NCBI GenBank assembly: GCA_045837725.1
Contig: JBEWZL010000209.1
Coordinates: 1-64,000 of the forward strand
Direction: 5' to 3'
Length of the DNA stretch: 64,000 nucleotides
Origin: Vermamoeba vermiformis
Lineage: Eukaryota
The notes below the pieces were generated by a model that was given only the letters and a program-made list of their open reading frames with translations, made no database searches and had not been told where the DNA came from. Made by a program: the position numbers and the translations under genes. The stretch's first letter is position 1, and every line of letters begins with the position of its first letter. Positions 16,841-38,210 of the stretch are shown here, in pieces.

Positions 16841-19800
16841 TTACAAATTGTCAATCCACTTATGCACCATCAAGTAAATTTTATCCATGGAAGCAGGCTT
16901 GGTAATGTAATCATCCATTCCTGCTTGTTTGGCAGATTCAATCAATTGTTCATCTGTATGGGCACTCAAGCCAACTATTATACTAGGTATTGCCTTTGCA
17001 TCAACTTCAATCTGGCGCAGTTTCTTTGTGACTTCCACTCCATTCATAATGGGCAATGTCAAGTCCATAAATATCATTGAGAACATCTCTGGTGAGAACT
17101 TGTCAAGAACTTCTGGGCCAGTACTTGCAACAACAACTTCATGTCCTTGTTTCTTTAGAATGCTGCTCAATAGGGTTTGGTTGATTATGTTGTCCTCTAC
17201 AATCAGAACTGGCTTCTTGGGAAGATCGGAACGAGCACTGTTAATTGCGTTTTGTGTGACAACTTCCTCTTTGTTCTTTTTCTTGCTTCCATCTGCATTG
17301 ACCCATTGTGCAATGATGCTCCCAATCTTGTCAAATGTAGCAGGCTTGCTGATGAAATCATTCATTCCAGCTTCGATTGCTTCAACAATCTTTTCAGGTT
17401 GAGCGTAGGCACTTAGCCCAATGATGAATGTTGAGTTTGGTGTGCTTTGTGCTCGTTCAATTTCTCTGATTTGTCGGGTAACTTCAATTCCATTCAACTC
17501 AGGCATAGCAATGTCCATCAATATGAAGTCGAAATACTCTGGCTTGAACTTTTCCACGGCTTCCAAACCATTGGCTGCTACTTCGCAGGAGAAGCCTTGC
17601 TTCTTTAACAAGCAACGGCACAACACTTGGTTAATGTAGTTGTCTTCAGCTACTAAAACTCGTCTGGTTGGTTCGCGCAGTTTTTTTGGCAATTCGCTGA
17701 GATGCACTTCCTCTGGGGCTGAAGCACACGTAATGCTGAATGCAAAGCCGTGCTGTGAATGCTCTTCATTGTTAACTACTTGAATGGCACTGCCGCCCAT
17801 GACCTTGGCAAGAAGATTGCTGATTGCGATACTGAACCCCGTATTGCTGTAATGAGAGCCCAGACTACGATTTGCAAAGGAGTGCTGATGCAACGAGGTA
17901 AATTCATCAAATGTCTGCTGATTCATCACATAGTTATTGCACGTGATTCGGGTGATGAGTTCTGATAACTTGTTGCTGATGACTTCGGTTGACTGAGTCA
18001 ACACAATTTGACTGCCGCTTGGAACCTTGTCGACAATGTACGTAAGCAGTGAGTGGATGATGTGCGACAAGCATCGTGCGTCCAATTCAAAACGAAGTCC
18101 AAATACTACTGTTTGCAGTTCAAGTGTGATACCGCGCTGTTCGATTCGATCGGCATACAAACGAGCAATATTTGTGACTAAAACTGCTGGATTAATCGTG
18201 GTTGGTGATAATTCAAATTTGTTCGAGTAAAGCTTCGTCAATAGCACGACTTCGTCCATTACGCGTGTTTGATGAACGGTGCATTCTTCTAGATTGTTCA
18301 AATAGTCCTTCATGTCAGTCAAGTCAGTTGAAACGGTCTCGCGGAAGGTCTTGATTGGATCTTGTGTCTTTGTCGCTGCTTGCCAGGCTTTTTCTAGCGA
18401 GAACAGACGCTCAGAAAGCAACTCCCAGCTGCCAGTAATGCCATGCAACGGGTTTCTAATCTCGTGGCAAATCATGTCTATGAACTCATACAGAGCTGTG
18501 TTGAGTTGCCGCAGTTCTCTTGTCTTTTCTCTTACTTCAGACTCGAGATGCATACGCAACCGGCCAAGTTCCAAATGATTTCGCACACGGGCAATGAGCT
18601 CTTTCTCGGAGAAGGAAGTCTTGACGAGGTAGTCATCCGCCCCTGGCATAAATGTGAGCACCGACTTGTCGCAATGTATGAGACTTACCGTGGCTGAGTC
18701 CTTCAACTTTTGCTTCCTCGCCAGCACGTGCTGACAATAAAATCACGGGAATGCTCTTTGTTATTGGGTTGGAACGGATCTTGCTGATCAATCCGAAACC
18801 ATCAAGTCGAGGCATCATAACATCACTTAGTATTAAATCGGGTGGATTAGCGCATGCAATCTTGTACGCCATCTCTCCATCTGTCGCAGTATCCACGTGC
18901 CACCACTTGCTGAGAATTTGCTTGATGTAACTTCGCATGTCGGAATTGTCGTCGGCCAAAAGCACACGATACCGCTTATTAAAAGGATCGTTGGTCATTT
19001 CGAATGAATCCTCGTCTTCGCTTGAAGAACTCAAAGCACTTGTGCCAGTGACGCCTTCACCCCACTGACTTGCTTCGTCGACAATTGATCGCGTGGAAAT
19101 AGACACACTCACGTCCGTAGGTGATTCTTTGATCTTGTCTTTGGGTAAGTGCGAGCTGCCGAGCGGAATTTTGACGGTGAAAGTAGTGCCACTTCCTAGC
19201 TTGCTCGAGACAGTGATGATGCCTCCGTGTAGCTTTGTTAATTCCTGAATAAGAGCGAGACCAATACCAGAGCCTTCAAAACTTCTTCCTTGAGTGTTTT
19301 CAATTCGGTGGAACCGCCGAAACATGTTTGGTAACTCGTGATCGGGGATGCCAACACCAGTGTCGCTGACTATGAACAGCACCTGATCGTCAACCTGCTT
19401 TAACGACGCAGTTATTCGCCCCATCAGCGTAAACTTGAAAGCATTGGATATGAGATTCATAACAATCTTCTCCCACATCTCGACATCGACAAAGACAGGC
19501 TCCGACAACTGATCAAAGTCCAATACGTATTCAAGAGAGGACTGTTCCATCAAGGACGAAAAGAGTTGGCATAGCTCGCGCGTGAGTTTGACTAGATCCG
19601 TTGGCACGAATGCAACCTGGGACCTTCCTGCTTCAAGTCGTGAGAAGTCTAGAATGGTGTTGACGAGCTTCAATAGCCTGAAGGCATTGCGTTGAATCAT
19701 TATTTGTCGCTCTTTTTGTTGTTCATTAAGAGGGTTGTGTTTGTCCGCTAAGGAGTCTGCCAGTGGTCCAAGCATCAAACTGAGCGGGGTTCGGAACTCG

Positions 19801-21714
19801 TGACTGATGTTTGTGAAAAAGATTGTCTTTGCGTGGTCAATCTTGGCCAATTCTTCCGCTCGTTTCTTCTGCTCTTCGTAAGCACGCACTGTATCCAGCG
19901 CTTTTGTGACGTGACTGACTACCATGTCAAAGAAGGCTTGATACTCAGCATCGTACAAACGGCGAGGACTAATGCCTGCAATAAAAACGCCTATTGGAGT
20001 TCGTTGAGAGTTTGATATTAGTGGCAAAACTACTGCATAGTTCGGTGACTCGGGCCAGATTCCTCCAGGTAACGGACCAAACTTCGGCACAAGTTCTGAG
20101 ACTTTGACTTGCTTCATTGACTTCACTGCTTCCGCGAAAGGCCAACCACAGCTTGTCGTATCTATATCAACCTCGAATGGACTAGCAGGAGTTCCAGGCT
20201 CTAGACCGGTCCAAGACTCTAATATAAGCTTGTTTTCACTGTTGAACAAGTAGAGCAGAGTGAAAGGCAGATCCGCTGGGCACGTGGTCAAAGACTTCGC
20301 CATGGACTTGCAAACGTCGCTCACAGTACCCGCTTTGTTTGCACTGCTTACTTCTCGTAGAAGGTTCATTCTTCGCGTGTTTAAAACCTTCTTTGTCGTT
20401 TCTAATGTCACGTCAAGTACGCCAACTACTTGCATATCTTCGTCGAAGATCGGACTTAATGAGAACGTGAAGTAGACTTCTTCTTGAAATCCATTACGCT
20501 CCATGAGCAACAGCAAGTCTTCTTGAAACTTGGACTTTTCGCCTGCCAACGCGCCTCTTAGCATGCCGATCAGATCAGTCTTGAGTTCACCCCAAATGTC
20601 GAGGCCTCTTTTGCCCATCGCAGGGTGTTTGTCTCCAAGATAAGGTCGATAGCTGTCGTTGTATAATAAGATCAGGTTTGGGCCCCACCAAATGCTCATC
20701 GGGTACTCGTTCTTCAAGCAGATGTTGACCGTGAGGATCAGACTCCGAGGCCACGAAGTTATTGGACCTAATTCGGTCTTGCTCCAATCGATATTGAGCA
20801 TATGTTTGCCCATTGCACCTATAAAAACTCGTAAATTCGATGCTGATCGGTTGCCAAATTAGGAACTATTGACACTTACCTCCGGATGCTATCATGTCCA
20901 AAAAATTCGACGGCAAATCGGGAGGTCTTGCGACGACAATGGTTGTGTCGTTATTTTGTTGGTTTTTTTCTTCTTTAGGCGGATCTCTCTTCGCTACGTG
21001 CAAGATTACGGTGAATTTACTGCCTTTGCCAAGCGAGCTCTCAACGGAGATATTGCCTCCCATGAGATCCACCAATTGTTTGCATATTGTTAAACCGAGG
21101 CCGAATCCGCCAAACCTTCCAACGATGCCGGAGTTTGCTTGAGAGAATCTTTGAAACACTCGATCTTGTTCCTCCTGGCTCATTCCAATTCCCGTGTCCG
21201 CGACGCTGAATTCTACTTCGTATTCGTTCTGGCCTTTTAATTTGTATTTCAAACCAACTGTCACGATGCCTTCAGCGGTAAATTTGAGCGCGTTGCTGAT
21301 CAGCACAATGGCGATTTGTTTGAGCTGCGTTTCATCTGACTCGAAATAAATATCTTCGCGAGGGAAATCAACTACGATGTGCTGTTTGGGAAGTAAATTG
21401 GGTTTGAAAATTTTGATGACATCGCTGACAGCTTTATGCAGAGTGACAGTTGTTAGATTCAGATCTAATTTTGAAGCGTGTAGCTTCGCTGCGGTAAGAA
21501 ATCGCCTTGTGATTGCTGTTTGATGAGTGACGCTGACATCTATGCCGTCAATAAAGCCATTTAGCTCCGAATATACCGCTGCATCCATTTTTGTTTTTGC
21601 CGACGAGAGCAATTTTTTGAGTTGCTCGAGGTTTCCTATAATCCCTTGCAAGGGACTTTGTAGCTCGTGGCATATGTTCGTTAAATAATATTGTAAATCT
21701 TCCGGCGCGTCCAT
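16841..21714 (-). CDS. Hybrid histidine kinase: HisKA-HATPase / PAS-GAF / HisKA-HATPase / REC / HisKA-degenerate HATPase / REC / REC (3 exons)
   Basis: H-boxes ICHELQSPL, ISHEFRTPL and ICHEIRNPL. N/G boxes NALKFT-DTGIG-GFGLGL and NAFKFT-DTGVG-GSGIGL. REC motifs SDVMMP, MDIAMP and MDLTLP. In-frame introns at 20819-20879 and ~18644-18688. The GGAMG..DWSKTELGP sensor start is typical of bacterial hybrid kinases. Confidence 0.9.
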
Positions 21715-22594
21715 TTGGGCTATGTAAAAAACTTTCCGTTAATAACGGGTCCTAGCCACGACGTGATGAAAAGCGTGAATGGACATTTATAATTAAATAC
21801 TAATCAATAGAAACCTTTTTTGACTATCATTACCTAATCTAAAACATTGTGCTTCTACTAATACGCTTGCAACAAATAATGAAGCGATTGCGGGGCAGTG
21901 GTTGTGTTTGGCACGCGTCGCGTAAAAAGTGCGGAAATTTCGTAGCGAACGATGTACATCACGCGGGTTCGGCCGTAGCACTAGCACTATCATCACCACA
22001 ACTCACTAGTAGATCCTCAACAGCTTTACAACGCAAGCCCTAATAGATCGTTAGTATAATAAACACAATAAACCCAGCAAGGTTTATCGGAATTCCGATA
22101 GGATTGCTGTTTCGTAAACGCACGAGCTGAAACCAAAAATTACCTTATTGAGATCTATTCTCGCGTTCTGTGTCAGAGCCAAGCCACACCGCAACTGCAT
22201 GCTACATGTTGTATTCTAATTATAAAAAGGCCGAGAGGGGTTAGATGGCAATTAAAGCAGACCAAAAACGGATTTAATTAGGTAAAATTATTAACTAAAT
22301 TAAATCAACGCGTATTGCAATGCCATAGCACATAATTATTTATTGTGCCGTAATTAATTAATTGAAAATTATTCTGACAACATTACTGACCTTTCAAAGA
22401 TTTTCTTTGCATTGCGTCAAATCTGTGTTGGAAACCTCCTCTGGAGTCATTGTTTTCTCCTCTTCGTTGACTAAATTCTTTTAGTTTCGTTTTACGACTG
22501 TCGGGTCGGTACGTTTGAGTGTTCCATGGCAAGGAAAAAGTATTAACTGATCTACCTCTTGCGCCGGCGCAGGTCGTTAAATCCCGCAAGGCAC

Positions 22595-25671: not shown

Positions 25672-28600
25672 TTATTTACTCCTCCTTACTGCCAGTTTGA
25701 AAGACATTTTTTGAATTTTTTCTTCGTAAACTGGCTCACTGAGGTCGCTTGGCAACTCGTCCGCGACCGAAAGCTCCGACAGACCCGCGCGCTCTACGAG
25801 CATCTTCTGATGAACTTCAATCGCATGCTTTAACTCGGTATTGCCAGTGATGATCACTAATATGCTATTAGTTACAATCAATGATGCAGACTTAACTTAC
25901 ACAACCGGATGTGCTGCTTGCGGGCCAGATCAAGTTTCTTCCGTAGCATTTGAATTTTCCTAATACACTCTCGGGCCATGCCTTCTCGGTCTAAAGTTTC
26001 TGTTCGTGCTTTAGACAAAAACACCGAAAAGTGGGCAGACTCTATGAGTTGGTACTCAGCTGGGGGCAGCGCACTCAAAAGCACGTGTTCCTGAATATGC
26101 GCACGTCAGCAACTGAGCCATTGAAAATAAATTAACGTACAGCAACGTTGAGTTGAACAGACTCTCCGTTCGGTAGCTTAATATCGAGTTGCTTGGCGCC
26201 GCTCTTGATCTCTTCGACAATCGCTTGTTGCGACTGTGCAATTTGTTTCACGACCAAGTTGAACTTTTTGCCGAATTGTTTCGCGATACCACTCTGCGAC
26301 TTGATGCTGACTGTGTAATTGCACGGCACGTGCTCGAAGTCAAGGCATCTGAAAAATGTTAGTGGTCAGTCCATGCACTCACCCTCGCGTGGACTTACTT
26401 CACATTTGTGCGGTGCAGAATGATATCTTTAGCTTGTTCAACTGCCTTTTGAAGCTTCGTTTCATAGTCTTTGGCGGCATTCACGTGCACTACTTCGCAA
26501 GGCCACTTCACTCCGAGTGCGAGCTTGTCACGAGCAGCGAGTATTGCAGTAATTACGTCGTTGGCAATGTCGATGCTGTCCTCCAAATCGCGGTCGATGA
26601 ACTGTTGATCTACGCTAGGCCAGCTCAATAAGTGCACTGACTCCGCCTGAAGTATAGGCAAATAGCCATACTCAGCACGCAGGTTTTGGTAGATTTGCTC
26701 TGTAAGGTGTGGAACAACAGGGGCAAGGAGAGTGATAATCGTCAAGAGACACTTAAATAGCGTGCTGGGAACAACCGTTAGACAATTGAAGAAAAGGTGT
26801 AACACTCACTTTAATGCGCTCCTCTTCTCATCATCAGACCCCGCAGAAGTTGACATCTCCTCGCGGTTAGTTTGCACGAACCAATGACTGAGCGTCTTCA
26901 AGGCGAATTCGCAAATCAGCGGCGGTAGAGAATTAAACTTGAACTGCTCCATCCGCTCAGTGACCACACTCACCAGTGAGTTTAGTTTTGACAGCACGTA
27001 GCTTTCTTCTTGTGACAACTTTGATGATGCGCCTGTGTCCGGCTTGATTTTGTTTAATTGCGTCATTTCTACCAAGTACTTGTGCAGATTCCAAATGACG
27101 TGCAAGTTCTTCGCCTCGCTCTGTCATTGCCATTAAAATTGAATAGTCGATTGCAAGCCACTCACCAGAAGATGCTGCAGCGAGAATTTGAGGTCCATCC
27201 CCGGCGCTGAAGCACCAATCAAATAAAGTCGAAGAGGATCCACACCATATTTGGCGTACACAGCCGTCGGATCCTCGAAGTTACCAGTTGACTTGCTGAT
27301 CTTGTCCTCGCCTTCATCGACTACAAAGCCGTGCATGTAACAGTTCTTGAAGGACTTTTGTTTGTTCACCATGACCGAGAGCAAATGCAGCAGATTGAAC
27401 CAGCCCCGGATTTGGTCTTTGCCCTCTGTTGCCAGCATTAACACGCAGTCACATTGATAGAGTATGTACTTACCGAGAATTAGATCGATCGGGAACCATT
27501 CGCTGTTCAGCTTGCTCGCTGCAGTGGCATCTTGCAGTGCATTCCACGAGGCACTACCGGCATCCACCCACACGTCGAGTACATCGGGCACGCGCTTGTA
27601 TTGGTGACTCTTGCCGTCTTTCGGACTGACACGTGTAATGACAACTGCATCAACTTTTGACTTGTGCAGATCGTCGAGCGCGCTGTGCTCTCCCGCAAGC
27701 TGTTGCAACTCTTCGGCACTACCAACAACGAAGTAGTCGCTTGCGTCATCAACATTGCGCCAAATTGGCAATGGCGTACCCCTAAGCAAGGAGTTAACGT
27801 AAGTATTGAATGACAGTTCATTCAAGTACCAATATCTTTGTTTTGACACGCTGTTGTCTCTCAAGTTCTCGAGCCAAGCGTTGAACGCATTTTTAGCTGT
27901 CTCGGGAACCCAATGGATCGTGTTGTGCTCGTTTACAAGATCTGTCTTGATATCCTCCACTCTAAAGCAGGCCATTAGTGTAAGTCCTTATTATTGACCG
28001 CGTGACATTACCTGAAGAACCACTGCTTTGTGGGTCTGAAAATGATTGGCTGCTTTGATCGTTCGCCGAACAAGTGGCTGTGCTCCACTTTATGCGAATA
28101 TAACACGAGCTTCTTTTCGTTGAACTTGTCGACAATTTTTGCGTCATCAGCTCTGGCTTTCAAGCCCTCAAATGCGGGATAGTTTCTGCGACGATTGTGA
28201 GTGCCTAAATGGAACATTTGACATTGTCCACTACCTGATCACACCGAATTCATCCAAGCCATTGAACTTCGCAGGGATATTATTCAGCTTGGCCACGACC
28301 CAATCGTCCGCACCGCAAGATGGCGCGCATGGTACGAGACCAGATCCATAGCGAGAATTGACCTCTGTCGCTAGCAAGACTGGGCCTTGAGTAACGAACG
28401 CGTTGCCAAAGTCAGGCAAATCAAATTGCAAACCCTATCAACATCATCGTTAGAAATAGACAACGCCGCGTTTAAATCTTGCCTTGAGTTCTTTGCCCAA
28501 ATAGGTTGTGATAACACGATAGCCGTTGACCTTCACTTTGTGCAAAAACAAATCATCTATTTGCTCTTTAGCAATGATATACTTGTTCGTGTGACTATTG

Positions 28601-30348: not shown

Positions 30349-31622
30349 ATGTTGAGCGAAGAAGAACGCAGCATCCTCCTTCAAGTGATCGAGGCATTTG
30401 GCTGGACTGCTTTCGCATTAACTTCAATAGTATTTACATTATACGGGTATGTCTTCGATTCATCAAGACTTCATTTATACTTTCTTTACTGTTGGGCGTG
30501 TTTATTGCAAAATGCGAAATTCATTTTTGACAAATACCAGATCTGCTGATATTATTTTACAGGCTCGATGAAAGGTCACTTCAGTACCCAAATAAAATAT
30601 TTTGGCTGTCCACCATTCCTGCCAGTAAGCATTGCTCAAACAAATTTTAATCAGTAATTAATTTTATACTGGCAGTCGTCTCGGCTTTCTTTGTCCCGTT
30701 TGGAACAATATCGCTTGAGCCCGGTACTTACGACACGCTTACACCGCAATGTAATGCACAAGGTAAAATTTGATCCGCGGATTGTTTTTAGTTTATTCAC
30801 ACTTTGTCACAGCTTTCATCGGACACTACGGATTCATGAGCTGGGCAATTTCGCTATTACTCTCATCTGTGTGGGTACGTGTCAAGCGTAACTTCGTTGT
30901 TTCTCTTTTGAGATTTCTCTAAAATCTAGGCACCGCCAAATTAATTTTAAATTTTATTGTAAACGAAATCATAACCTAACATCACTTTTATATAGTTGTA
31001 CCTATTGCTGAAAAACTCGAAGTTTTTGCTAAGACCAGAAGACGAGATCTTGACGTGGTATTGTGTCCTTTGCTACATTTTGCCGTTATTACCGGCAATA
31101 ATAGCACTTATTGCCAATGTTTATGGCCCTCTAGGTTATTGGTGCTTCATTGACTCAAAATACGGTTACGGTTGGATCTTGGGCCTATTTTACATTCCAA
31201 TCACCGTTTGCTGCGTCGTGACCGCTGTGTTTTTAATTATGGGCGTACTGTTGTTATTGAAGGTAAGACGCATTTATATTATCTCGCAATTCTCATTTAT
31301 TTGATCGCAGCGCGTTAAAGCCAAGAGGAAAAATGAAGCTCGGCACTTCGAATACAACGACGAGCAATGGTATCAATTGCAGATTAGACTCGTCGTCAGT
31401 TTAACGCTGACCACGTGCATCACATTGGGACTGATGATTTATGCATTTGTGACTATCGGTGCCATGAATAGCGGTGCCGCTATCACCCGTGAATTCGGCG
31501 ATGCAATAACGCTCTCCGTGTTCATCTTCTTGCTCTACTTGGTGCTCGTCGTGCCCATGTTGTCGACAGCTGTGCCGTACAACTTCATCAGGCAACGACT
31601 GTCGCGCGATCGGAATACGTGA
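30349..31622 (+). CDS. 7TM receptor, cAMP-receptor-like (CAR/GCR1-type) GPCR
   Basis: Multiple hydrophobic exons, with YGPLGYWCFI followed by LFYIP, typical of CAR/CRL-family receptors. Confidence 0.65.
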
Positions 31623-31696: not shown

Positions 31697-34600
31697 TTAA
31701 GCCTCTGATATTTGCGTGCATAATCGCAATCGAGCACCTTCCATCGCAAGCCCTGGACCGAACGCTAAAGAAACTACATCTTGACACGTGTCAGCAGGTA
31801 CCTCGCGTTGTTTGTTCAAAATATTCTCCAACACGAAGTAAACTGTGCCCGACGAGACGTTGCCGTACTTGTTGTACACTTCCCACGTCGATTTTGTTCG
31901 TTCTTTTGGAATACTCAACTTTTCTTCAATCGTGTTGATAATCGCTTTGCCTCCAGGATGAATGGCCCATGTAATCTCAGATGACTTCTGGTCTTGCATT
32001 AACTGAGCAGCGAAAGGTTCAATATTGCCGCCCAACAACTTGCTGATCTGAGACTCGAGACCGACTTTCCACCCTAAAACCCTCGGTTAGATTATTATCT
32101 TCTCAAGCGGTCAAGTAATGCACGTACCACTGTCAGAAAGGTCCCATCGGATCTGCTCCATTGAACCTTCAAGAGCACCGCTGATGCAATTGACAACTTC
32201 GTACTTGGGCTCTTCAGCACTACGGGGATTGCTGCCCATGATCAATGCTGCAGCACCATCGCCGAACAAGGACTCGGCAATGAGATTGTCAATGCGCGCG
32301 TCATCTTTTTGCACGTGCAATGAGCACAGTTCCGTGCACACGACGAGCACTCTGTGATTAGGACTAGCGCGGGCAATTTCAGAGGCAGTACGAAGAGCAG
32401 TCAAGCCACCGAAGCAGCCCATGAAGTTCACACCCAATCGAGCCACGGACTTGTTGAGGCCTAGCGCGTCCATAATGTAGAACTCCAGTCCTGGGACGAG
32501 CGTGCCCGTGCACGACACTGAAATCACGTGCGTGATGTCTTTGAGATCTCCGCCCCAGTTCTGTTCAATAAGTGAGACACAACACTCATTGTATACTTAG
32601 TGCTGACTTACGGCAATTGCTTGACGAGCAGCGGCAGTGGCGAGTGTTGGAGCCTCGCGCACGTAGTACTCGTTGCGGTGTTCAGTCGAACCAAGCTTGG
32701 TCAGTTCATCCAGCGACAAAACCATGTGGCGACCTTCAATACCGTTGGCGGTGAAAAACTTGATAATCTTTTCTACCATTTCGGGCTGTTTGGTGGGAAT
32801 AGTCGAGCTCTCAATTAGAGCACGAGCAGACACTTGTTGCGGGTAATAATTCTCGGGCACTGCTTTACCCATGGCCAGGACATACGCTGCGGTACTAGCA
32901 GGTTGTTGCACGGTTCGTTGGCTGGCAGACTTCTTTTGAGGACGAGTCGTGGCGCCAGGTCTAGTAGGCTTGCCCAGCGTCGATTGCTCGATGTTTTTCA
33001 ACGCCAAATACGAGGCCAATTCTTTGATGTTTTTGCACTCGTAGAAGCAAGTGGGACTGATATCTTGTTCCAAATAGCGCTCTAATTCTCCGACGGCAAG
33101 AGCGACATCGATGGACTTGAGGCCGTACTCAGCGAGGGGCTTGTGAAGGTCAGTGATAGTAATGCCGGCATTGGACTTCAATGACTCGATGATAAACTGC
33201 TCAATTTCACTAGCTTTGGAGGTGTGCGCGGCATTGAACTCTTTCTTCTTCTTGTATTGACGCACGAGACCTTTGACATAGCCCACTGCAGGTACAATGA
33301 GTGCCATGAACACGAGCACTGAGACGTAAAACCAAGCCGAGATTTCAACGGGACTGAACTTCCACAGCACTAACAGCAGAAGAGCTGTCGAGAGCATGAC
33401 CGTCCTCGGCCAGTGCGAGCTCTTCGGTCGATACGGCTTGAGTTCTTGATTCAACAACATGTCGCGGCACGTAGATCTAGGGCAACATTAGTGCACTGTA
33501 ATAAATACACTGGGATGATAATACCTTCTGATTTTACCGCTGGTGGTTTTGGGCACTTTACCAGCACTCATGAGAATCAAGTGATCGTCGCTGAGTGCGA
33601 GCGAGTGGTTCGTTTGCACCGCGAGTTTGATGGCACGACGAACGGCCTGCAGCGAGTTCATAGAGATGTTGACTCCTTTCTTGACCTCAGCCACGACGCA
33701 CAACTCTTCAGAGCTCTCGGAGGCCACTGCAAATGCAGCACAACAGCCCTTGCGGAGCAGAGAGTGCGCGCGTTCAACAGTGCTTTCAATGTCTTGTGGC
33801 CAGTGATTGGCGCCGTTGATGATCACCAAGTCCTTGTCCCTGGACGCGAAGAACAGCTCGCCTTTTTGAATGAAGCCGAGATCTCCCGTGCGCATGAAGG
33901 GACCTGAACATGCGGTGAGTTACTGCAACGAGCGGTTGAGTAACAATAGTACCTTGATTATCAGCGGTGAAGTTACGAAAGATTTCATTGGTGAGCGCTT
34001 TTTTGTTCCAGTAACCCTTGGCCACGCTCTTGTTTTTGACCCAAATTTCACCGACTTCACCGTCACGTGCTGGCAACTTTGTTTTTGGATTGACAATCAA
34101 CAGCTGAGTGTCACTTTGAGGTGCACCGAGACCGACGATCTCCAGTGCGTCATCAGTGCTCATTGTCTTCATTTCAACGCGCTTGTTCTCGGTCATTTCA
34201 CTGCGTGACACTGTCAAACACGTCGGCACTGTTTTCGTCTCGCGCGGTGAGTACGTTACGAGCAGCGTTGCTTCACCGAGTCCGTACACAGGATAGAAAC
34301 TTTCTTCCTTGAAGCCAAATTTGGCAAACGCACTGAACATCAAGTCAACAAATCGTATGAAAATTATTGCAAAGACTTACGCGGAGAATTTCTTGAGTGT
34401 AAGCGGATTGATTGGTTCGGCTCCGCAGAAAGCCATCGTCCACGAAGACAAATCAAAGTCTTTGGGATAAAACTTGGCGTCACTGAACTTCTCGGCTAAC
34501 AAACTGTACGCAAAGTTTGGACCGCCAGAAAACCCGATTTTGAGCTTGGACAACAATTCGAGCCAAATCGCGGGACGTTTCAAGAACGACAACGGACTGA

Positions 34601-35786
34601 TCAGCCATTGTGTGCCTACGACGAGCAAAGGTGTGAAGAAATGTCCGATGAGACCCATGTCGTGATACATGGGTAACCAACTGAATGCCAATGTTAATAA
34701 TTATTACTATATTAGGAAATTATAGGGATTACCTGAGGCCACTAGACGAGGGTAGAGCCCCAGTGAAATTGAAAATTTGCGTGCAATTGTGGAAAATGTT
34801 CTGTGAATGTTGATTGTAAGTGGCAATGATTACCAAATAAGGAAATAATCTGTCATTACCTCGTGCGTGAGAATGATGCCTTTGGGATCGCCAGTCGAGC
34901 CCGAAGAATATTGCAACATTAGCGTGCTGTCCGGTGTAATTTCTGGTTCAATGAAAGATTCGTCTTTGTGTCCCACGGCAGCGCTGTAATCGACCCACTC
35001 AAAATCTTTGGGCAAATGCTGGTTCAGTTTTCTGTGGCGCAACATGAGCTGCATTTTGATCATTTTGAGAACGAGATTAGAGGCCAAACAAAGCGACGAG
35101 CCCGAGTCAGTTATGATCTTAATGGCCGCTCCCATCGAATACGCAAAGTTATTCGGCAATGGTGGCATGGCTGTGACCACAGTGACACCTGAAAATGACA
35201 CGTGTCAACGCAATTATTTGTGTCAAAACTCCGAAGCTGAATTGACCTCGCGCGACGATTGAATAAAGATTTTACCTGCATAAATAGCGCCCAAGAATAC
35301 TCGCAAGAAATCCAAACCAGGAGTGTACATCAAAAGCACTCTAAGAAGTCAAATAAGATTCGCGAATCAGATCTGAAAATTTTTTCGCTTTTTACCTGTC
35401 ACCAGACTTCAAGTTCTTTTTGTTAATTAAAAAGGATGCCACGCGACACGCGTCCTTGTCAAGCTCCGCGAAAGATGCGCTGTCAATTTCCTTGCCCTAA
35501 ATACAAATTAATATTATGATCCGTTTTGCAAATTCAACAGTTAACAAGTTTAGTAATATTATTATTAACTTAATATTACATTGCTAATCACGTACATTAT
35601 CGTCGAGGTATCGAAATAATTTGTGTTGCAAAGGCAGATTTTTGTCTTTGTACCACTTTGTCAAGGCTTGCCGCGAAAACATGTTGATGGATCCGCTAGT
35701 ATTGTGGTCTTAATAACAATGTTGAGTAATTAGACATATAAATTTCTCGTGACAAAGTTGCTTTACCTTTTTAAGACTTTTTCCAT
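31697..35786 (-). CDS. Fatty acyl-AMP ligase - transmembrane - ACP - type III PKS fusion protein
   Basis: FAAL motifs LQYSSGSTGDPKG, SWLPMYHDMGLIG, YGLGEATL, RTGDLGF and PKTTSGKIRR. An in-frame intron leads to a hydrophobic hairpin, then ACP EYGLKSID, then the type III PKS triad FMGCFGG / AIHPGG / YGNVSSG. Confidence 0.9.
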
Positions 35787-36249: not shown

Positions 36250-38210
36250 ATGTTGGCATCAATAGGCACGACATTGGCGCTAATATTGGTGTCGCTAGCC
36301 TTATTATGGCTATCCAAGCTGCGATCTCGGATGGTAAGATCATAAACTTTCAATTATGGTCATCAATTCCGAAATTATCGGTTAGATAAATTAATTAAAA
36401 ATTTATTAGATCCGATTGCAGAGTTCTTTGGGCCATATCCCAGGCCCCAAGCCAAATCCACTCTTTGGCAATATTCTGGATGTTTTTACGGCCAAAGCAT
36501 ATGGCAAGGCACTATTACAGCATATTCCTAAATACGGTGATATTGTAAGGCACAATTTATTCACTTTTAATGCGTGAGTTTAAGATCTGACCATATTTTT
36601 AAGTTCGCCTTCTACGGCTTTCTACCTGAAGTCGTGCTTAGTCACCCTGATCATATTAAGATGATGTACTTGCAATCGCACGAACGGGGTGCTGACTTAT
36701 CGCAGCCTATCGCTGAAACAGCCAAGTGTACGTGTCGCATCCAGATTTAGTTTTCCTCCTACAATTAATTACTAACACATTCTATATAGCGCGAGGCTTA
36801 TTCTCATTGCCTTACGGCGACAAATGGAAATTTCATCGACGATTAGTCTCGCCGAGTAAGTTCAACTTAGATCCAAGTCTTAAAGTTAATTCATCATACT
36901 TAGTTTTCCAATCGTCAAACTTGCAAAAGATAGATTGGATTATCATCGAAAAGGTCGGCAAACTAGCTGAGCGATGGCGCAAATTGGCTGCAGCGAATGG
37001 CGGACAAGTTGAAGTGAATTCAATGGTCGAATTTCAAAATATGACCGTGGATGCAGTAGGCAAGGCTGCTTTTGGATATGATTTCAACGGTATTGCCTCA
37101 ATATATAACCTCACTAACCTTATTTTAATTCTTTTTCCTTTTTTAGCACTCGACGGAAACAGCTCCGAATTGCTCCGCGCCTTCGATTTAATTCTCGCAA
37201 CTATCGCGCACCGAATTATCTTCAATTTGATACCCTATTGGAAGTGGCTCCCGTTCATTCCTGCCAACGCACGATTGCGCCAGGCACAGCACTTGTCTGA
37301 GAGCACCATGGCACGCATGATCGAGAAGCGTGTCGAGGACTATGTGCGCGACAAAGCTGCGGGCAAGTTGAAAGAAGAGGGCCTGGATCTGATGGACCTC
37401 TTGTTGCGTGCCTCGCAAGAGAGCGAAGACGGCAAATTCTCCGTTGAAGACCTCTACGGCGAGTGCTTTACATTCGTGTAAGTGACACTCTTTGACACGT
37501 ATCAAACTTTCTACAACTGACACGTTGACAGCGTTGCGGGCAATGAAACCACGGCCATTTCACTCACATTCTTATTTAATTTGCTTGGCAATCACTTGGA
37601 CGAACAACAGAAGGTAACAATAACACCACGAGTATTGTCAGTAATGTTTTTTGATAGCTTCGTGAACACATCCGCAAAGCTATCGGCGACAAAACACCGA
37701 CGATCAACGATCTGAACAACATTCCTTATTTGGAAATGACCATCAAAGAGAGCATGCGCGTGTTCCCAGTCGCGTACATCAATCGTCGTGAAGCACAAGA
37801 GGACATGAAGTTCGGTGATTATGTAGTACCCAAGGGCACGTCGTTGATTTATGCCACGCAGCACCTGCACAACGACGAACGGTTCTGGAAAGAGCCGCAA
37901 CAGTTCAACCCTGAACGCTTCAGTCGCGAAGAGGAAGAAAAGCGGCCGTTGCATTCGTTCGTGCCATTCGGTGGCGGGTAAGCACAACAACAATATCGCA
38001 CATAGACCCTTAGTATTAACAATTCTATTGGCCCCTAGATTGCGCATTTGTGTGGGCAAGACATTCGCCATGTCCGAAATGAAGTTCACGACAGCCCTCT
38101 TGTTGCGCGACTTTGAATTTGATTCGCGCAAGCACGGCATCACAGACACGGTGCAAGAGTTCGTGATGAAGCCGTGCTCTGCCTGTCCATTCACTGTCCG
38201 GCCATTGTAA
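36250..38210 (+). CDS. Cytochrome P450, divergent from the FAAL-PKS gene
   Basis: N-terminal anchor MLASIGTTLALILVSL, PGPKP hinge, AGNETT, KESMR, FNPERF and heme motif PFGGGLRICVG (spliced). Confidence 0.93.

Follow-up and report, generated by a model that had tools for sequence, protein, structure and literature searches.

A gene of Vermamoeba vermiformis that joins a FAAL-type adenylation domain, a hydrophobic linker, an acyl carrier domain and a type III polyketide synthase in one chain

Gene structure and transcript support

The first 64,000 nucleotides of contig JBEWZL010000209.1 of Vermamoeba vermiformis (assembly GCA_045837725.1; hereafter the window) carry on the minus strand a gene of 11 exons whose spliced coding sequence (CDS) of 3384 nt encodes 1127 amino acids (aa) and ends in a single terminal stop. 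Its product contains, in order, a fatty acyl-AMP ligase (FAAL)-type adenylation domain, a hydrophobic linker, an acyl carrier protein (ACP) domain and a type III polyketide synthase (PKS) domain (Table 1). An earlier note, made from the letters of this DNA, had proposed such a single chain, and the open spliced frame, the contigs that bridge its junctions and the colinear transcript homologues described below bear the proposal out.

The gene model was rebuilt from the minus strand, read from 36100 to 31500 and spliced by script, and all ten predicted introns are GT..AG and 48-99 nt in size. The fusion depends on intron 8, which the earlier note had placed at ~33478-33523 and which spans exactly 33477-33524; the junction across it (SGKIRR-STCRDMLLNQE) is in frame, and its residues align with those of transcript-derived homologues. 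The ACP and the first 100 aa of the PKS both lie within exon 9, so these two domains are joined without any splice. Of the gene span given at the outset, 31697..35786, the stop end stood, whereas the other end is better placed at the ATG at 35682, because the open reading frames (ORFs) of the Physarum and Soliformovum homologues begin with an aligned Met-Phe; with this most likely start, 35683-35786 would be 5' untranslated region or an optional small exon.

Transcript evidence was drawn from four public runs as short contigs of 150-380 nt with 95-100% identity. Run X4 is RNA-Seq on record, and run X1, which is only guessed to be RNA, was taken as spliced RNA because exact GT..AG deletions are what spliced RNA yields. 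Contigs of these two runs hold exact joints for seven of the ten introns, the FAAL-linker junction included: the joints at 34801-34859 and 34681-34732 share a single 192-nt X4 contig, and a single X1 contig holds the joint from 33476 to 33525, flanked by 266 letters towards the FAAL and 90 towards the linker. For intron 7 the contigs offer only a 21-letter loose end. In a relative with 90-95% identity, raw RNA reads (12 in X13 and 16 in X15) have intron 9 removed, which is their sole joint, and hold nothing on the FAAL junction. We conclude that the FAAL-ACP-type III PKS fusion is real and is expressed as spliced RNA.

Table 1 Features of the FAAL-ACP-type III PKS gene (positions in the window).
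Feature	Position	Strand	Details
Whole CDS	31697..35682	-	frame open after splicing; introns all GT..AG
Exons 1-4	35682-35596, 35496-35396, 35340-35276, 35188-34860	-	
Exons 5-8	34800-34733, 34680-34381, 34332-33953, 33903-33525	-	
Exons 9-11	33476-32612, 32560-32128, 32073-31697	-	stop 31697-31699
Introns seen removed	35341-35395, 35189-35275, 34801-34859, 34681-34732	-	exact contig joints
Introns seen removed	34333-34380, 33477-33524, 32561-32611	-	exact contig joints
Intron 8	33477..33524	-	48 nt, GT..AG; sole link of FAAL to the rest; contig joint and homologue alignment
FAAL-type adenylation domain	33525..35682	-	aa 1-570, exons 1-8; Pfam, PDB, NCBIfam
FAAL-domain motifs			SSGSTGDPKG aa 179-188; YGLGEAT 333-339; TGDLG 449-453; PKTTSGKIRR 561-570
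Hydrophobic segment 1	33362..33403	-	aa 595-608; Kyte-Doolittle (19-residue window) 1.71; marginal transmembrane helix
Hydrophobic segment 2	33275..33343	-	aa 615-637; Kyte-Doolittle 2.26; strongly transmembrane-like
Acyl carrier domain	33005..33196	-	aa 664-727; PP-binding; Ser691 at 33113-33115 in GLKSID
ACP-PKS linker	32867..32974	-	aa about 738-773; pLDDT <50, exon-9 model residues 168-203
Type III PKS domain	31700..32914	-	aa about 758-1127, exons 9-11; Chal_sti_synt_N, Chal_sti_synt_C
Catalytic triad	Cys907 32414-32416; His1041 31958-31960; Asn1074 31859-31861	-	

Conservation in other Amoebozoa

The same architecture is conserved in other Amoebozoa. With exon 9 as query, a word-index search of longer proteins gave no match; matches came from an exhaustive phmmer search with this exon (217 at E <=0.001, nearly all of them ACPs of large synthases), at the top of which four proteins join an ACP to a type III PKS (P0001, P0002, P0003 and P0004). 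P0001 is 79% identical to the window protein, and P0002 is a metagenome fragment of 546 aa without a FAAL, which is probably cut because its contig measures 2157 nt and it has no starting Met. Physarum polycephalum contributes P0003, a transcript ORF of 1117 aa, and Soliformovum irregulare an ORF of 1168 aa (P0151) from the P0004 cluster. These last two carry AMP-binding, PP-binding and Chal_sti_synt_N/C in the same order as the window protein and align with it by BLASTP as single segments, that from Physarum at 42% over 1146 columns (1-1115 to 1-1111) and that from Soliformovum at 39%, colinear end to end. In two quick trees, with support from the approximate likelihood ratio test SH-aLRT and without bootstrap, the window protein, P0002 and the Physarum and Soliformovum proteins form a clade with an SH-aLRT value of 99; a second FAAL-ACP-PKS clade falls apart from it, and the deep forks are open.

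When the ACP-PKS part of the Physarum protein was searched against proteins of 614-1955 aa, 13 of the 91 matches carried AMP-binding together with PKS domains; two of the 13 also had a ketosynthase (KS) and a methyltransferase (MT). Among the remaining matches are MT-ACP-PKS proteins, an ACP-PKS of Acrasis kona and proteins in which dehydratase (DH), enoyl reductase (ER) and ketoreductase (KR) domains precede ACP-PKS. The ACP-type III PKS hybrids P0152, P0156, P0157, P0158, P0161, P0165 and P0170 differ in their upstream parts, which are FAAL-KS-MT-ACP (two cases), MT-ACP, ACP only (Acrasis kona) or Steely-like DH-ER-KR-ACP; one member of the MT-ACP cluster reaches 2565 aa.

An alternative interpretation is that the locus gives two products, a free FAAL and a hydrophobic-ACP-PKS protein that would associate in trans, as the bacterial proteins do, through retention of intron 8, which would bring in an in-frame TAA, or through an internal start, as might be read from a Soliformovum isoform ORF of 585 aa (P0004) that starts inside the FAAL C-terminus and makes a shorter ACP-PKS product possible; P0002 also lacks the FAAL, but is probably cut. 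Further points that weigh against a single chain are that no contig or read in the four runs covers the whole mRNA, that introns 1 and 10 are not bridged in them and that the RNA status of X1 is a guess. We consider two products unlikely, because the junction is crossed by a spliced contig that extends 90 and 266 letters to either side of it, two transcript ORFs of full length conserve the residues at this joint, and AMP-binding and PKS domains recur within one protein in the long matches counted above.

Adenylation, carrier and type III PKS domains

Pfam, PDB and NCBIfam scans were run on single in-frame exon translations. The ANL adenylation core is recognised by Pfam AMP-binding on exons 4, 6 and 7 (43.6, 40.2 and 38.5 bits; cut-off 29.9), and exon 8 matches AMP-dom_DIP2-like, a FAAL-like family that covers the C-terminal subdomain. 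For exon 7 the first 14 PDB chains are all FAAL/FadD-type, ahead of any other adenylating enzyme, with 3kxw (1e-19), 7r7e, FadD32, FadD23 and FadD28 at the top. The alignment of this exon to residues 312-427 of the FAAL 3kxw is nearly gap-free and runs through the FAAL insertion; non-FAAL enzymes, adenylation domains of nonribosomal peptide synthetases (NRPSs) among them, align to it only past residue ~61, downstream of the insertion, and its 99 residues span 72 positions of the general AMP-binding profile. Fatty-acid--AMP ligase models of NCBIfam come first for exons 7 and 8 and a close second for exon 6; all these scores are far under the whole-protein cut-offs, since the scans were of exon pieces. 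From these matches we infer that the adenylation domain does FAAL rather than coenzyme A (CoA)-ligase chemistry.

The carrier domain scores 36.3 bits against Pfam PP-binding (cut-off 20.8) on exon 9. Its motif is indeed GLKS, and not GLDS, as had been noticed earlier. All 12 of the aligned sequences have the serine, Ser691 (S121 of exon 9), which in an AlphaFold model of exon 9 starts helix 2 (residues 121-135) of the four-helix carrier fold at a predicted local distance difference test score (pLDDT) of 84-90; it would be phosphopantetheinylated.

It might be argued that the adenylation domain works as an acyl-CoA ligase and makes acyl-CoA for the PKS, the ACP being vestigial or serving another partner. 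Type III PKSs normally take CoA starters, according to the available text of one paper (PMC12625978), and two of our own results point the same way: exon 6 scores marginally higher with a long-chain-fatty-acid--CoA ligase model than with the FAAL model (89.7 versus 85.5, NCBIfam), and the ACP motif lacks the usual Asp before Ser. We give this little credence, because FAALs lead both the structural and the family matches and align across the FAAL insertion, the C-terminal subdomain matches the DIP2-like family and the invariance of the ACP serine argues that the carrier is used.

In the PKS domain, Chal_sti_synt_N (102.2 bits) begins on exon 9 and continues on exon 10, and Chal_sti_synt_C (83.6 bits) lies on exon 11, both above the cut-off of 27. 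The Cys-His-Asn triad that the earlier note had called intact is so: Cys907, His1041 and Asn1074 fall on columns that are invariant across nine relatives.

Hydrophobic linker and possible membrane association

Two hydrophobic helices had been claimed at ~33275-33400, between FAAL and ACP, together with a membrane-anchored enzyme; the position is as claimed, and segment 2 is strongly transmembrane-like, but segment 1 is only marginally so. Segment 2 has Kyte-Doolittle values of 2.26-2.52 across the window protein, P0001 and P0002, and insertion energies of +0.9, -0.4 and -0.2, respectively, these energies being rough, crude sums without position terms on the scale of Hessa et al. 2005. In the exon-9 model the linker is a helix, a six-residue loop and a helix, in which segment 1 corresponds to helix 22-40 (pLDDT about 59-70) and segment 2 to the start of a long helix; AlphaFold is silent on membrane insertion. 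Because a single span would place the FAAL and the ACP on opposite sides, we prefer a hairpin or monotopic anchor: in this organism and its nearest kin, the helix-loop-helix probably tethers the enzyme to a membrane or lipid droplet and leaves its two halves facing one side.

We caution against taking this anchor as general. Counting against it, segment 1 has a crude insertion energy of +3.4, compared with +2.4 for a buried segment of the FAAL core, and the linker peaks at 1.51 in Physarum and 1.55 in Soliformovum, below our Kyte-Doolittle threshold of 1.6, above which the second FAAL-ACP-PKS clade has no linker segment either. The feature is thus strong only in the window protein and its nearest relatives, P0001 and P0002. 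The stretch could instead be a plain linker, a helix at a dimer contact, or a hairpin lying in the membrane plane or on a lipid droplet, in a soluble or peripheral enzyme, a reading that fits the core-like score of segment 1, the relatives without a segment above threshold and the moderate AlphaFold confidence there. It is a serious possibility, yet a somewhat doubtful one given the hydropathy and near-zero insertion energy of segment 2, the Lys/Arg-rich stretch that follows it and the hydrophobicity retained despite substitutions in the 79%-identical P0001. 'Membrane-anchored' is accordingly kept as a reading of hydropathy, and for the closest relatives.

Another way to tie a type III PKS to the membrane appears in the same search of longer proteins, where 56 of the 91 matches (within P0173-P0233) are type III PKS-UbiA prenyltransferase fusions of about 650 aa, mostly from Dyadobacter.

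Relation to Steely and to bacterial systems

For each of the two PKS exons, the best match among solved structures by a wide margin is Steely1 (2h84; 3e-43 and 2.2e-19), and the next solved type III PKS after the first of these values stands at 1.3e-26. Steely enzymes have an N-terminal type I fatty acid synthase (FAS)/PKS module with KS, acyltransferase (AT), DH, ER and KR domains, and a size of about 3000 aa. The Dictyostelium proteins Steely1 and Steely2 (StlA/StlB) resemble the window protein in that the type III PKS directly follows an ACP in one chain, and in their amoebozoan setting. No Pfam family for KS, AT, DH, ER or KR was found on any exon of the gene, which is not classed as a Steely because it has no N-terminal type I FAS/PKS module. 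Here a FAAL would supply the starter, so that the acyl chain is taken ready-made and not built, and 1127 aa with a hydrophobic linker stand against the about 3000 aa of Steely. Since the PKS is closest to Steely1 and is joined to the ACP in a didomain as in Steely, we regard the gene as a sister design and not an independent invention. The contention that it is 'different' from Steely is therefore not fully supported; our preferred view is of a Steely-like ACP-type III PKS with a FAAL in place of the type I FAS loader.

Two Dictyostelium papers call the two Steely fusions unique in their available text (PMC9489281, PMC12625978); the window gene and its Physarum and Soliformovum homologues are a second, smaller hybrid on the ACP-type III PKS unit. 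Our literature search did not find AMP-binding, PP-binding and type III PKS described in one protein. As far as its available text goes, a 2025 FAAL review covers stand-alone, didomain and PKS/NRPS-fused FAALs and mentions type III PKSs only in trans (PMC11837247), and in the available text of a 2021 eLife paper eukaryotic FAAL-like domains are mainly those of DIP2 (PMC8460268). The bacterial three-protein systems in the 2025 review, CylA/CylB/CylI of cylindrocyclophane and the Myxococcus alkylpyrone system, consist of a stand-alone FAAL, an ACP and a type III PKS, and share with the window protein the three activities and the presumed order of acyl transfer (PMC11837247); they are separate polypeptides, however, whereas here the parts are fused, eukaryotic and interrupted by introns. 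The FAAL-ACP didomain loaders of PKS/NRPS lines, HapA, NocH and AmbG, likewise have a FAAL fused to its cognate ACP, but pass the chain on to modules of the type I PKS or NRPS kind and not to a fused type III PKS, and the available text reports no hydrophobic insert between their FAAL and ACP (PMC11837247).

The earlier view that bacteria keep the parts separate was supported in part by a scan of GTDB species genomes, of which the best 80 of 573 confirmed loci were considered and ORFs were read at 2 of the 80. The PKS part of the query alone was matched at 79 of these best 80 loci; the Bacteroidota locus L069 matched query residues 33-1115, yet has its AMP-binding, UbiA, PKS and methyltransferase parts on separate ORFs. 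With ORFs read at two loci, fused forms may still occur in bacteria; P0159 and P0160 lie on JGI contigs of 404 and 197 kb. Among the best 45 loci for the Physarum PKS domain (L001-L045), 38 have chlamydial names and two belong to Dependentiae, mostly amoeba-associated bacteria. No transfer is claimed, because a quick tree keeps these chlamydial and Dependentiae relatives among the bacteria, set apart by a 99% split. At the first of them, L001, a PKS, a methyltransferase and a flavin adenine dinucleotide (FAD) oxidoreductase lie in a row, a PKS, methyltransferase and FAD hydroxylase context that we take to be an Srs-type phenolic-lipid operon. Such a context at the closest, mostly chlamydial, prokaryotic PKS relatives supports an alkylresorcinol-like product class, but the locus differs from the window gene in its stand-alone PKS of 365 aa without an ACP and in an acyl-CoA-ligase-type AMP-binding gene on the opposite strand.

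Proposed mechanism and product class

Taken together, we favour, with a probability of roughly 0.7, one polypeptide that acts as a self-loading type III PKS, a Steely design with a FAAL loader. The N-terminal FAAL would adenylate a free fatty acid and load the acyl group in cis onto the Ser691-bound phosphopantetheine of the ACP; the acyl-ACP would prime Cys907 of the C-terminal type III PKS, which would extend the acyl chain with malonyl-CoA and cyclise it to an alkylresorcinol, acylphloroglucinol or alkylpyrone. The products are probably phenolic or pyrone lipids made from free fatty acids; the term 'phenolic lipids' is inferential because it is based on the enzyme family and the Srs-like context of the bacterial relatives.

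A more ambitious proposal, which we put forward tentatively and at somewhat less than even odds, is that these genes form an amoebozoan family of self-loading, membrane-tethered 'FAAL-Steely' synthases that draw free fatty acids directly from a membrane and turn them into phenolic-lipid signals or defence compounds with one 125-kDa chain. If so, they and the FAAL-KS-MT-ACP, MT-ACP and FAS-ACP forms would show that Steely is just one of several pairings of an ACP-type III PKS cassette with exchangeable loaders. The route from free fatty acid to aromatic polyketide would be about the shortest possible, with no need for a CoA ester or for any partner protein except a phosphopantetheinyl transferase, and the gene would for these reasons be an attractive part for making alkylresorcinols, pyrones and acylphloroglucinols. 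It also offers a system in which the priming of a type III PKS by acyl-ACP can be tested, and it may lead to new lipid signals in amoebae other than dictyostelids.

Neighbouring genes

A multi-exon cytochrome P450 gene (36410-38210, plus strand) is transcribed away from the PKS gene, whose start codon lies about 0.7 kb off, and has Pfam p450 on 36717-37481 and I-helix-like and haem-loop-like motifs in ORFs 37521-37715, 37658-37981 and 37848-38210; it is a candidate tailoring enzyme. On the other side lies a convergent gene for a Dicty_CAR-type (cyclic AMP-receptor-like) G-protein-coupled receptor (30996-31622, plus strand); about 75 nt separate the end of its last ORF from the PKS stop. Like the isoleucyl-tRNA synthetase exon below, this receptor fits an amoebozoan source, probably one without a near sequenced relative. 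Farther off on the minus strand, very long ORFs at 16841-21738 resemble, from the ORF list, hybrid histidine kinases with several receiver domains, and 27133-27987 is an isoleucyl-tRNA synthetase exon with its best matches, at 45-53% identity, in Amoebozoa (five named) and many DPANN/Woesearchaeota archaea.

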